Shown here: positions 6,391 through 57,850 of the stretch, one piece after another
Layout of the letters: each line of letters begins with the position of its first letter
How positions within the stretch are numbered: position 1 is the stretch's first letter
NCBI GenBank assembly: GCA_964016885.1
Contig: OZ024745.1
Span: 17,236,001-17,300,000, forward strand
Source of the DNA: Eledone cirrhosa
Taxonomy: Eukaryota
DNA length: 64,000 bases
Reading direction: 5' to 3'
Translations under genes and position numbers: made by a program
The notes under the pieces: model-generated
What the model saw: the letters and a program-made list of their open reading frames with translations, nothing else
Database searches by the model: none
Told to the model about the DNA's origin: nothing

Positions 6391-6679
6391 ATATATATAT
6401 ATATATATATGAAAATGTATGACCCCGACGGCAGAGCTCAAACCGTGTAAATACAATTAAGTCTATCATGACAGTCGGTGCGAGTTGGGGGTGGCTGAAC
6501 TTTCCTGTAGAATAATGTGGGAGTGAGTGGAACCGGTCAAGCGTTGAAAGTGAATTCTATACAGCAAATTCTAAGGATTGTGTATGAAGCTTGGCTAGAG
6601 GAACTAGGCGAAAAAGGATTCTAGAGAAAATAGAGAAGGGACGTTATAGAATAGGTATATCAATTGAGATTAGAAGATA

Positions 6680-8170
6680 CCATGACCCACAATCGGTGGT
6701 TCCTGCCCTGAGGTAAATCGGCCTCCAGGTCAACTCGGCCAAGTTGGAGGTGGTGAATGTCAGCCACGATGCTGAGAGCTTTCCAGCCTCCGTCTCGGAC
6801 GTGCGGTCTATCTCCACCAGGTACAGGTGACACCCAAAGGGGATATCCTCATCCTCGGGTCACCAATCCTACCGCTGGCCATCCGCTCCACCATCAGGTC
6901 CGGGCTTCAACAACTCCAGACTCTCACAGACCTACTGAGCTTGATCGACGGCTCTTTCTGTTGAGGAACTGCTTCGCCATGCCGAAGCTCCTCTATACCC
7001 TTCGCAGAGCTCTGTGCTACACCCACACATCTCCCCTCGCTGACCTCGATACTTGTATCCGAGCAGCAGTCGAGGAGATATGTAACGTCAAGTTTGACGA
7101 CATTGGATGGCAACAAGCCACTTTACCTGTCAGGTATGGCGGCCTTGGTCCCCGGTCCCTGATCTCGCACCCTTTGCCGGCGTATCTTTCCTCGGTAACC
7201 TCGTGCCGACCGTGTCCTCGTCAGCAGAGTTCTTCAAACCACAATAGAACCCTCTGTGTTCAGAGAAGGTGAGGCCGCCCGTGAGACGTGGGACCGGCTG
7301 GGACTTAGACGTGTGACCGGCTGGGACATAGACGTGTGACCGGCTGAGACTTAGCCCAGTAGACGTCCCTCTTCCTTCTCCCCCTGTTGACGTCAAGTCC
7401 CCCCAAAGCACATGGGATGCCACCCAGTGCAGCCTGGCCTCAGACAGGCTCACGCGCAAGCTCGACAGGCACCGCCTTGCCTGCTTTCGTGCGGCCTCCA
7501 AACCCCACAGTGGTACCTGGCTCCATGCCCTGCCCTCCTTATCCACTGGCACGCAGCTAGACAACAATAGCCTGCGCATCGGCGTTTCCTTGAGGATCGG
7601 CTTCCGGTTCTGAGAGCCACACCAACGTCGCTGCGGATCCACCGTGGACTCTTTCGGCCTCCACCAGCTTTCCTGTCGCCACAGAGCCGGCCGCCTTCAA
7701 CGCCATGCTGCCCTCAACGAGATCATAAAGCATGGCTTGGGCGCTGCGGGCTTCCCTTCCCAGCTCAAGCCGGTGGGGCTGGACCGAAGGGACGGCAAAA
7801 GGCCAGATGGCATGACCATCTTCCCGTTCCGCGGTCGCAAACTCCTCGTCTGGGATACTACTTGCACCAACACTTTCTGCAGCCGCAACCTGGTGCAGTC
7901 TGCAGCTAACCCAGTTTCTGCTGCACATCGGGCTGCGGAGGCCAGGCTCCTCAAATACCGGTCGCTCTCCGATAGGTTTGCGGTTGTAGCCATGGCAGGG
8001 GAGACTTCTGGTGTCCTCGGCCCTAGGGCTACCTCCCTACTCACCACCATAGGCGCTGAGCTGGCCAGCCGCAGGTGTGAACCCCGCTAGTTTCAGTAAC
8101 TTTTCCAGCGCGTCGCCCTTGGCATCCTCCGTGGGAACGCCTTCTCCATCCTGTCCGCCGGGGCTGTGAA
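6680..8170 (+). pseudogene. CRE-clade non-LTR retrotransposon, RT C-terminus, zinc knuckle and restriction-like endonuclease, disrupted
   Basis: IGLQVNSAK, LLRNCFAMPKLLYTLR, WQQATLPVRYGGLG, C..GLHQLSC, RHAALN, GKRPDG..LVWDTTC, ETSGVLG, LRGNA. Stops and frameshifts are present. Confidence 0.85.
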
Positions 8171-8617
8171 GGAGGGGGGAGGGACATCGCGTAATATTCC
8201 ATATTTTGGTTTCCCCATAGTTATTGTTTAGCCATTAGTCGCCACATGGCATTCATTTATTACCACATTCCTATAGGTATTAGTACTAATACTATCACTA
8301 CTATTACCATTACAACCATTACTATTAATATTATCTTCTAATCTCAATTAATTTACCTATTCTATAACGTCCCTTCTTTATTTTTTCTAGAATCCTTTTT
8401 CGCCTACATCCTCTAGCCTAGTTTCATACACAATCCTTAGAATTTGGTGTATAGAATTCATTTTCAATCCTTGACCGGCTCCACCCACTCCCGCATTGTT
8501 CTATAGGCAGGTTCAGCCACGCCCACCTCCCACCCACTGCCATGATAGACTTAATTGTGTTAACAAGAAATGTTTACCAATTCTCTTGACAACTACAATC
8601 TTCCCATATAAGGAATT

Positions 8618-8714
8618 ACCCTCCTGATCAGTTAGGCTATTTACTTACCACGCTAAAAATTATAATTTAGTCCAGAAATAGCCGTCTAAACGTCTTGAGC
8701 TCTGCCGTCGGGGT
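8618..8714 (+). ncRNA. degenerate type I hammerhead ribozyme (related to family A)
   Basis: Collinear with family A, but the core boxes are mutated (CTGATCA; TAAA in place of GAAA). Confidence 0.55.
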
Positions 8715-9559
8715 CATATATTTTCCTATTACCCACTCTACTAGTGTAAGTATTGAGTACTCTGGTGCGTTATGGTCCATCTGGTTCCTTACCAAAACTC
8801 CTTCGCTATATATATATATATAATATATATATATATATATATATATATATATATATATATATATATATATATAGAGAGAGAGAGAGAGAGAGAGAGAGAG
8901 AGAGAGAGAGAATAAAAGAGAAAACCCAGATAAGCATTAAAAAAAGGGTTTTATCCAGGTATTTACGACCGTTTCATTGGTAACTGCAACATTATATTGC
9001 TATACTGCAAATAGCAGCCACTCGATAATACATGTTATTCACCTCCAAATTTTCAAAATAATGAATAAGTTACTCGTAAAAGGTTCTAATAAATAAAATA
9101 AGATTTTTTTGGAATTGTATTTACTAGTATAGAGAGAGAGGAAGGGGGAGAAGAAACAGGAAGTAGGGAGACAAACGGAGTAGTATAGGTTTTTTCGTTG
9201 TTCTGGTCCTAGCGGCTCGCTTTTCGGTCGCTGGCTTCAATTTGCATAGCTGTCTAAACGTAATGTTATAACTCTAAGGTAAAATTCCTTATTGAGTGCT
9301 TCTGTCTGCACTTCCCGACAGCATTCGTTAGCTTGCCCGCAACCAGAGCTTCGATCATGTTGTACTACTTTCTTTTATATATTATATATATATATATATT
9401 ATATATATATATATATATATATATATATATATATATATATATATATATATATATATATATATATATAACGAAGGAAATGTGGTAAGGAACCAGGTGGACC
9501 ATAACGCACCAGAGTACTCAATACTTGGGGTAGTAGAGTGGGTAATAGGAACCAGTAAG

Positions 9560-9653
9560 AACCCGACGGCTGAGCTCAAGCCGTTTCGACGGCTACTTCG
9601 GGACTAAATGAAAATTTATCCTGGTATTTAAATAGCCGATCTTCTCAAGGGGT
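9560..9653 (-). ncRNA. type I hammerhead ribozyme, family A (U3-A8 core)
   Basis: Reverse complement reads ACCCC-TTGAGAA-GATCGGCTA...TAGCCGTC-GAAA-CGGCTTGAGCTCAGCCG-TC-GGGTT. Confidence 0.8.
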
Positions 9654-55509: not shown

Positions 55510-56165
55510 ACTTCTACAGGACTAGAACTGTTTCATTCGTGAGAAATCATCCGGAAGCTGGCTGTCCAAGTGTGTGTATTTATATATTTGTATATATGTA
55601 TGTGTGTATTTACCATTATGTATGTTTGTTGTGTATGTGCCTGCCCATGTGTGCGTGCGTGTATGTGTGTGTACGTGTGTACGTGAGCGCGTGTGTGAAT
55701 GTGTTTGTCGACACCTGGAATATTTATTAAGAGAAACTACACAATAAGGGGTCTCACCCAAACACTTGAATCTGTTGATGGAACTCTTTCGGCCTTTGTC
55801 ACCCTTAGTTCAGCCTTAAAAATTAGCTTCTAAAGAATTTCCCTTTTCTTTAAACCATTGAAAGCCACCCATCTTGTAGACACCTGTCTTACAGGCATTG
55901 TTAGTCTAAGTGATAAACAAGGATTGGTATTCCAATTTTGAATTGTTTACAGTATTCTTTCTGCCTTTGCTAATATTATAGCTTTTAAGAATTAGCTTTT
56001 AATGAACTCCCTTTTCTTTAAATCCTTCAACCAATGACCTACAGCCATCCCAATCCCCACCCTCTCCTACCACCAGATAAGGAAAGATATAAATACTACT
56101 ATTTACTTGGACAGCTAGCTTCCTGATGATTTCTCACGAATGAAACAGTTCTAGTCCTGTAGAAG
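55510..56165. mobile_element. PLE-type relic with ~60-bp inverted arms carrying a degenerate HHR (CTGATGA 56123, GAAA 56142)
   Basis: 55510-55570 mirrors 56107-56165. Stem I is unclear. Confidence 0.55.
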
Positions 56166-57278
56166 CTGTTCAATAGTAAAACCATCTCTCTATATATATA
56201 TCGTACGTATATTTGCTTGTATATATTATAGACGTATATATTATATAATATATACTGGTACATGTGCATATGGTTATGTGTATACGTGAGTTTTGCGTCT
56301 GTGTGAGTATGCGGATTCGTACGTATGTAGGGGGGGTGTATATGTCTACTTTGTGTTTTGGTTGACGTTGTTTAGCGAACATATGTGTACTTATATGTAG
56401 GTATGTGTGCGCGTGCGTTATATACGTATGTATGTGTGTATATTTATATACGTTTATATAATTATATATATACACGCACACACTCGCACATACATGTATA
56501 TATTTTTTATATATATTTTTGTGTGTGTTTGGTGTATACGTTCGTATGTGTGCGACTACAGGCGTTGCGTGTGTTCCGTATGTGCGTGCGTGTTCTTTTG
56601 TGTACTTGCTTGTATTTGCATACCCATGACGGGTGTTTTCGCGTATGCATGTGTATGTACGTATATGGATGCGTGCTTGTATATATTTAATTTTTGTTGA
56701 TTTCAATTACCTCTGTAATTTATTCACATTATTCTTAACTCTGAAGCCGAGAATCATTCGGTTTCCTAACAAGAATTTAGTCTACGACTTCAGTTATACC
56801 ATAAACGTGGTTTTGTCTTTGCGTGTAATTGTTTTCACCGCACCAAATGATGACGTATTATCTTCATTGTTTTCCTTTCATTGCCAGAGAACGTTTCCAA
56901 GAAACACCTAATAAAATATTAGTCTGCGACTTCATTTATACCATAAACGTCGTTTTGTCTTTGCGTGTAATTGTTTTCCCGCACCAAATAATGACGTATT
57001 ATCTTCGTTTATTTTGTTCTTTGCCAGGGAAGGTTTCCAAGAACCAAAGTATCGTCTTCCTGTCTTCCTCCGGTTGCAACGTTTTTCGAAATATTTACTT
57101 CTCCATTGACAGATTGATTTTTTTTTAGCTTCAGAATGTCTCGTTAAGGGTGAAAGGAGCGATTATTTGCTTAAAATTCAATCTATTATTTTAATATATA
57201 TATATATATATATATATATATATATATATATATATATATATATATATATATATATATATATATATTTATATATATATA

Positions 57279-57350
57279 TTGATGAGCTCGATACTCGAGA
57301 TTTATCCTTAATAGGATATCTCAAAATACGAACGAAACTATGGTAGAGAT
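57279..57350 (+). ncRNA. degenerate, 5'-clipped hammerhead-like motif
   Basis: TTGATGA-GCTCG..GAGAT..ATCCT/AGGAT..ATCTC..CGAAC-GAAA-CTATGG-TA, starting directly after (TA)n. Confidence 0.45.
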
Positions 57351-57741
57351 ATAATTACGGTATGTGCACGTTTTTTCTAACTTTAAATTTATACCTGATT
57401 GTGTATGGTTTACGATATATTTGGTCAGTTTCTACATGCTGTTGAAATGTTGGGTAAATACTCTATTGTGGTCAATCGCGAATTGGCTGCTTTCGGTTAT
57501 TTATCAAATATTTCTTCATAGGAGCCTTTATTCTTATAGCCTGGTCTAATTGATTTTTTTATATGGTTAATTATGCTAATTGGGAGAGGAAATTGTATAC
57601 ATTTTACTAATAATTCTAAGGACATGATTTATGATATATATATATATATATATATATATATATATATATATATATATATATATATATATGTGTGTGTATA
57701 TATATGTATGTATATATAAATATAAATATATATATATAATA

Positions 57742-57850
57742 TAACGAAGGAAGTGTGGTAAGGAACCAGGTGGACCATAACGCACCAGAGTCTAGAACTA
57801 GCTGTCGAAACGGCTTGACCTCTACTGTCGGGGTTCTGACTCTTTTCCTG
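57742..57850. mobile_element. family A mini-insertion made of two non-overlapping, opposed fragments
   Basis: 57742-57791 is the reverse-complement tail end. 57789-57850 is the sense HHR 3' half to the short end. (TA)n flanks. Confidence 0.8.

Follow-up and report, generated by a model that had tools for sequence, protein, structure and literature searches.

Insertions of family A, a Penelope-like element (PLE) of Eledone cirrhosa, almost always pair one long 3' end with one short 3' end, and the two ends lie at two fixed points of the element. The analysed window was a 64,000-nt stretch (G000:C5:17236001-17300000 of a 3.0-Gb assembly; contig OZ024745.1). It was dense in (TA)n tracts, and many retroelements were inserted into these tracts, some nested in one another. 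We regard the long/short pairing as a real, genome-wide rule in a known element class, with a specific and testable mechanism. Both nicked strands of the (TA)n target probably prime on one RNA, one at each of two points 80 nt apart.

Pairing of long and short ends in family A

The window contained five family A or A-like insertions. All five had one long and one short end, with the long end 80 nt past the short end. The long end could lie on either copy: at 9468 it belonged to the inverted copy, and at 42687 to the main copy, which bears the open reading frame (ORF). All of this had been claimed in the earlier note and was borne out. Below, S and L denote the short and long start sites, and arm positions are counted from S (0), with L at +80.

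6411-8806: A1, A-like insertion; inverted short-ended arm at 6411-6679 (short end 6411), foreign 1.6-kb segment, + strand long-ended arm at about 8330-8806 (long end 8806)
9468-14497: A2 insertion; inverted long-ended arm at 9468-10583 (long end 9468), then a + strand partial tandem of a 376-nt pseudo-long terminal repeat (pLTR), tail, ORF and 3' untranslated region (UTR), terminating at the short site (short end 14497)
42687-45456: A3 insertion; main copy on the - strand with long end 42687; inverted short-ended arm at 44957-45456 (short end 45456)
49257-49458: A4, 202-nt fold-back; long arm of 142 nt (long end 49257) and short arm of 62 nt (short end 49458), meeting at -62
57744-57850: A5, small A-like long/short insertion (long end 57744, short end 57850)
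10960-10963, + strand: S (GTTCC/TAT), internal copy at the pLTR-tail junction
10961-11040, + strand: 80-nt tail between the short and long sites
11040-11043, + strand: L (TTCGT/TAT), internal copy

Fold-backs of the A4 type were the most frequent insertion type in the genome. The A1 arms enclosed a GC-rich 1.6-kb foreign segment with broken ORFs (6680-8330), whose borders had no TA tract. These ORFs presumably belong to the 3' part of a restriction-like-endonuclease non-LTR element; the foreign ORF had no Pfam match. The segment may be a nested insertion or a capture at the joint.

Family A has a single ORF with reverse transcriptase (RT) and GIY-YIG endonuclease, domains that were assigned from motifs. 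Its frame was interrupted in A2, and the sister copies L127 and L157 held open ORFs.

11134-13300, + strand: broken RT and C-terminal GIY-YIG ORF of A2, with the Hydra-clade motifs DKT, YRDD, CxCx5C, CxxC and CxH

The open ORFs contained HSDKTG (DKT in place of DKG), RLRWRT (RWR for RWK) and YRDD. Read by eye, their CxCx5C linker was CNCPDRSIC, their CxxC was CNLC and their CxH was CKH, and family A had no CCHH motif, with a single Cys in the GIY-YIG core. The clade description in PMC8557442 gives the change of DKG to DKT, an RWK motif, a CxCx5C linker, no CCHH, and CxxC and CxH near the C end for the Hydra clade, with elements "generally" under 3 kb; the family A unit was 3.46 kb, including a 3' UTR of 1.2 kb. 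A2, L127 and L157 all had a partial tandem (pLTR), an inverted 5'-truncated copy and a tail, which is the architecture of endonuclease-bearing (EN+) PLEs, and the target of family A was (TA)n. Placed by motifs and not by an RT tree, family A is probably a Hydra-like Penelope element. No Pfam match was obtained with family A fragments, and a PDB sequence search gave no match. Two family A leaders lacked the CTGANGA...GAAA hammerhead core, and only the GAAAC...GTC half was visible. Rfam found no hammerhead in the window, only sub-gathering hairpin and microsatellite matches; hammerhead cores were seen in four other window families.

Arms were sampled with an internal 25-mer that presumes no end position, which had 34,757 exact matches genome-wide. 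The first 100 of these (C1 up to 20.8 Mb) were used for end positions. Ninety-two of the 100 core-anchored arms ended within 1 nt of S or L (+80), a count accurate to about one arm, as one further match ran into the ORF and was internal. Among the remaining eight, three were internally deleted yet finished on an S or L word, three ended at +3 to +6, one ended at +67 and one was interrupted. The termini were sharply bimodal, not continuously distributed. Exact end words followed by TA repeats numbered 8,403 for S and 19,969 for L, totals that are not comparable since subfamily coverage differs.

Pairing was then counted with gapped patterns, each with a 31-nt window of total arm length, and like/like places found on both strands were counted once. 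Within the short fold-back class with intact end words, to which these size-matched counts are restricted, there were 8,956 L/S, 76 S/S and 39 L/L fold-backs in the genome (98.7% L/S). Random pairing would predict about 4,535, 2,286 and 2,249, respectively. Like/like pairs were about 80-fold rarer than long/short pairs, and the exceptional S/S and L/L palindromes were real assembled sequences. The earlier note had assigned a long and a short end to each insertion; the pairing was near-obligate, but 1.3% of pairs were like/like and solo arms existed.

Loci not picked for like/like pairs were tallied after exclusion of pairs that had a TA tract inside or a family coverage of less than 80%. Insertions no longer than 400 nt comprised 77 L/S, one L/L and no S/S, and those above 400 nt comprised 18 L/S and one L/L, indicating that the pairing is not confined to tight palindromes. 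The first 100 25-mer matches formed 66 clusters: 56 L/S (one with L cut at +67), no L/L, no S/S, six interrupted or without clear pairing, and four solo arms, three of which were one tandem.

Some loci departed from the simple pair. At L061:1507-1731, (TA)18 lay exactly at S inside a long arm, and this long/short insertion looks like a short/short one plus a solo tail. Solo long ends of 45-100 nt without an inverted partner were found at L034, L049, L051, L054, L055 and L056; several solo long ends stopped within about 15 nt of the short site. At L135:5400-6050, a solo short arm plus degenerate TA repeat was present in three tandem copies with a period of about 210-230 nt.

Other families were examined in 1.30 Mb of unique fetched DNA, which contained 1,357 segments between TA tracts, 297 of them with inverted ends. 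In 23 multi-copy families besides family A, 101 of 107 insertions were one-sided, and six were near-symmetric, several of these in simple repeats. Thirty-nine single-copy groups, some of them symmetric, are outside this count. The tail length of the multi-copy families was family-specific, from about 31 to 144 nt.

Start sites, arms and the wall at -62

A hairpin was found just past each site in A2.

10969-10992, + strand: hairpin 1 (ACTC...GAGT, two stems of 4 bp and a bulge of 2 nt), 8 nt past S; fold -4.4 kcal/mol
11047-11068, + strand: hairpin 2 (GCTC...GAGC, same shape), 6 nt past L; fold -5.9 kcal/mol

Hairpin 2 was intact in three of four internal family A copies, and a second hairpin after L was also present in at least three other families. 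An RCTC...GAGY helix starting 4-9 nt after S occurred in 15 of 38 families (ACTC/GAGT in 10, GCTC/GAGC in 5), whereas 0.4 was expected from shuffles. TA microhomology of at least 3 nt followed S in 25 of 38 family representatives, against 12.6% in a two-sided null (p ~3e-14). Two TA-complementary priming sites had been proposed earlier. The proposal agreed with the TA enrichment at S and with the TAT at both S and L of family A, but the signal at L was weaker and was readable in few families. As 2-3 matching bases cannot alone select a site, the conserved hairpin just past each site is the likelier positioning signal.

S and L were alike in having TAT and a hairpin, as expected of two equivalent start sites. 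This makes it unlikely that RT starts only at L and that the short end is made later by a TA-specific endonuclease, through trimming or resolution at the TAT of S. Trimming also gives no reason for its restriction to exactly one arm in about 99% of cases, and in vitro starts have been mapped to both tail boundaries in the anole experiments of PMC11167929. On the other side, the TAT at S could serve for cutting as well as for priming, the (TA)18 at L061 implies that S can be attacked or expanded in DNA, and "EN-mediated resolution" is the explanation favoured by Craig et al. 2021 (PMC8557442).

The two arms of an insertion were compared at six diagnostic sites. L/S arms differed at no more than one site in 62 of 64 insertions, compared with about 30% for random arm pairs. 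Arms of clearly different subfamilies were found in 6 of 31 L/L insertions (p=0.014) and in 1 of 16 S/S insertions. Arm lengths were coupled, with both arms short in 83 insertions, both long in 22 and mixed in 7. The 24 long insertions were read by hand and part of them were picked for their long L arm, which leaves the conditional comparison as the one that can be relied on: when the long arm extended beyond -66, the short arm did too in 22 of 26 insertions, and when it did not, the short arm did so in 3 of 86.

In most fold-backs both arms copied the same 62 nt (-62 to 0). Two RNA molecules in an asymmetric complex, with one subunit always at S and the other at L, would give this full overlap with no need for strand displacement. 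The coupled arm lengths and the same-subfamily arms (62 of 64 in L/S, 25 of 31 in L/L) speak for one RNA, and we consider the two-RNA arrangement quite unlikely.

Short arms stopped at a wall.

10899, + strand: position -62 (A of TC/ATTT, initiator-like), where short arms stop; putative RNA 5' end

In 68 fold-backs that retained both anchors intact, none of the 136 arm ends passed -62, which is 62 nt upstream of S. The next larger fold-back size class was 6-fold rarer (1,400 versus 8,956), and in the first 100 of these 1,400 most of the extra length consisted of A/T runs or of the last 10-14 nt in repeated form. The TC/ATTT word resembles the initiator consensus. Transcription of the Drosophila virilis Penelope starts inside the pLTR from an internal promoter (PMC2377424). 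From the arm ends, we infer that -62 is probably the RNA 5' end.

A TATA-like word 25 nt before -62 was not relied on and is not conserved in subfamily A3. Hammerhead cleavage was rejected as an origin of the wall: the core is incomplete, and a cut by the half that is present would fall near -17. At G000:C1:52721998, 64129531 and 80880937, the fold-back centres repeated the last 10-14 nt of the arm two or three times or held long A/T runs. At such centres the element RT may have copied the template 5' end over and over, or they may reflect polymerase-theta-type templated insertion. An arm start at exactly -376 was shared by two independent insertions (window 10584 in A2, and L160:5382); it may be a coincidence or mark another 5' end of the RNA.

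In 38 of 88 small insertions and 11 of 24 large ones, the upstream end of the short arm lay beyond that of the long arm, indicating that the short arm is not a self-copied fold-back there and that the two cDNAs are independent. A self-copied arm cannot outreach its template. The joints were blunt or had a 1-2 nt overlap in 41 of 68 fold-backs, and others had insertions. The L-primed cDNA could in principle fold back at the RNA 5' end and copy itself until the TAT at S anneals the other target end. The fold-back shape and the wall at -62 fit this route, and self-priming was proposed for rotifer PLE palindromes (PMC3846280). It is contradicted for about 40% of insertions, many joints being blunt or with insertions as well; it could hold for a minority, but as the general explanation it is highly improbable.

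It is equally improbable that amplification or survival produced the pairing as an artefact, with one miniature inverted-repeat transposable element (MITE)-like fold-back having spread or like/like palindromes having been lost from the genome or assembly: about 190-nt fold-backs dominate and some joints recur, but joints varied widely, the pattern was present in each of several subfamilies, multi-kb insertions with non-palindromic interiors followed the same rule, perfect S/S and L/L palindromes were assembled where present, and 23 other families agreed. A MITE with a fixed unit and symmetric terminal inverted repeats was rejected, as the ends were asymmetric and the centres variable.

Proposed priming of both target strands on one RNA

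Priming of both target strands on one RNA is the explanation that we prefer. The earlier note had read the ends as two defined sites, one used by each strand of the cut target. This reading is supported, and the priming itself is what we infer from it. The protein, possibly as a dimer, would bind the two hairpins, and each target 3' end would pair with the UAU that immediately precedes a hairpin. Two active sites would be at work; their polymerases would both run toward the RNA 5' end, and the one started at L would displace or collide with the cDNA started at S. Host end joining would link the two cDNA 3' ends head to head, with 0-2 nt of overlap or short insertions.

The site pair lies in the leader and again at the 3' end of long-ended sources, which would give two coupled size classes. 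Priming on the leader copy would be followed by run-off at the RNA 5' end and would yield the fold-backs of about 190 nt, and priming on the 3' copy would yield long arms. The genome's MITE-looking palindromes of that size, which number in the thousands, would on this view be by-products that arise afresh with every insertion. For the tandems (A2, L127 and L157), a longer transcript or a template switch would be required. Inside (TA)n, target-site duplications are unreadable.

Several observations weigh against priming on one RNA. Like/like pairs made up 1.3%, solo arms and solo tails existed, and one window insertion (30148-31828) was near-symmetric. Fourteen of 16 S/S pairs were also identical at the diagnostic sites, and the concordance of arms could stem from gene conversion or from one active source locus per cell. 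One shared RNA would require strand displacement over the shared 62 nt. The cap signature at the wall was weak: among the first 100 of 303 matches, the untemplated bases were G 12, C 6 and A 1 (n=19). The exact RCTC/GAGY helix was missing in 23 of 38 families, one of them Neptune-like, yet these were one-sided, so one-sidedness does not universally depend on the hairpin. In the assays of PMC11167929, the anole element started without target homology and with no start-site difference between the strands.

A broader proposal is that PLEs integrate by obligate programmed twin priming, with one RNA, two hairpin-marked sites and an RT-endonuclease subunit on each. We put it forward tentatively, at somewhat less than even chances. 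If true, no conventional second-strand priming step would be needed, the commonest product would be a 5' run-off fold-back, and the route would be separate from both target-primed reverse transcription of LINEs (long interspersed nuclear elements) and long terminal repeat (LTR) integration.

Other insertions of the window and comparison with known systems

Eight other TA-flanked inverted insertions of the window had one-sided tails of 36-132 nt; a further one was nearly symmetric, and one was a probable family E pair.

23647-25454: insertion of another family; long end with a 132-nt tail on the left and short end on the right
29217-35885: insertion of another family; short end on the left and long end with a 113-nt tail on the right; its internal TA tract holds further nested elements
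30148-31828: Hydra-like EN fragment; ends nearly symmetric (4-nt difference), an exception to the long/short rule
31853-35018: Neptune-like PLE with RT, Cx4CxxC linker and GIY-YIG with CCHH; short left, long right (36-nt tail)
37108-37905: insertion that contains a hammerhead core; short end on the left and long end with a 77-nt tail on the right; both sites are followed by RCTC/GAGY hairpins
49521-51062: family E-like insertion; left end probably the long one, right end short; weak alignment
54719-54920: fold-back; one-sided tail of 44 nt
54960-55399: near-perfect fold-back; one-sided tail of 55 nt
55422-56190: one-sided insertion; tail of about 64 nt
57917-58189: fold-back with hammerhead core; one-sided tail of 102 nt including a (TC)n run

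The Neptune-like element followed the long/short rule of family A. The Pfam domains RVT_1 and GIY-YIG were matched on 32043-33719 only, which lies within it, and the fragment at 31006 had no Pfam match. The internal TA tract of the insertion at 29217-35885 had taken family E, Hydra-like and Neptune-like insertions. A pair of arms at 23352-23574 and 25789-26011 was left out of the window end tally.

The earlier note had reported the same two stops for family E and one-sided tails for families B, C, D, F, H, I and J. Both family E stops were present (short at 29935 and 51062, long at 37091 and 39730), but they formed at most one pair in the window, and 29935-30081 was a solo short arm. One-sided tails were found in the eight other insertions, and not in the nearly symmetric 30148-31828. 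If this insertion is the family F of the note, whose B to J labels came without coordinates, its tail was not borne out. Three further fragments were noted. The one at 5244-5756 (- strand) resembles the C-terminal part of a Helitron's PIF1-type helicase, 62463-64000, at the end of the window, probably holds a different Penelope-like ORF fragment, and 18963-19592 is probably an RTE-like RT piece.

In LINE-1 (L1) twin priming, both target strands prime on one RNA and a head-to-head inverted insertion results. Only a minority of L1 insertions take this form, the position of the second site varies, and there is hardly any overlap between the two cDNAs. In family A, unlike in L1, paired priming would be the norm, at two fixed sites, and the overlap of the arms is about 60 nt. 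Family A would work like twin priming, but not in its L1 form.

The Penelope of D. virilis and the Pen elements of Adineta vaga share with family A the partial tandem and inverted pLTR, an optional tail of 31-34 bp on one inverted pLTR, and an initiator-type start in the pLTR (PMC2377424, PMC3846280). They differ in having measurable target-site duplications, and the structural descriptions in these papers come without genome-wide pairing statistics.

PAc, the Poseidon element of Anolis carolinensis, belongs to another clade. In vitro it nicks and extends both strands of an AT-rich target, and two internal starts near the pLTR-ORF junction bound its tail; a stem-loop lies near the start and the protein is a predicted dimer, all as in family A or as proposed for it (Frangieh et al. 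2024, PMC11167929). Its starts are not homologous to the target, whereas TAT microhomology was enriched here, and the pairing of the two sites within one insertion is not addressed in the biochemical account of that study.

The Hydra clade, as described in PMC8557442, shares with family A an RT with C-terminal GIY-YIG, DKT, R-W-[KR], CxCx5C, CxxC and CxH without CCHH, a (TA)n target, an inverted 5'-truncated copy and a tail that is often one-ended, at either end. Its tail is 30-40 nt, versus 80 nt in family A and 31-144 nt across the families here; family A also differs in its missing canonical hammerhead core and its unit of 3.46 kb. Craig et al. 2021 credit the tail to endonuclease resolution, in an account of the clade that has no pairing counts, hairpins or 5' wall (PMC8557442).

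The one-ended tail of inverted insertions had thus already been described (PMC8557442, PMC3846280). Our literature search found no report of counted or near-obligate pairing, same-RNA evidence, a 5' wall or twin hairpins, and older reviews by Arkhipova may say more. How PLEs, the sister group of telomerases, make inverted and tailed insertions is named as an open question in PMC8557442 and PMC11167929. In family A, thousands of copies turn a tail that is "often one-ended" into a counted rule of 98.7%. The evidence also adds signs that both arms come from a single RNA, and it names RNA features that are open to mutation.

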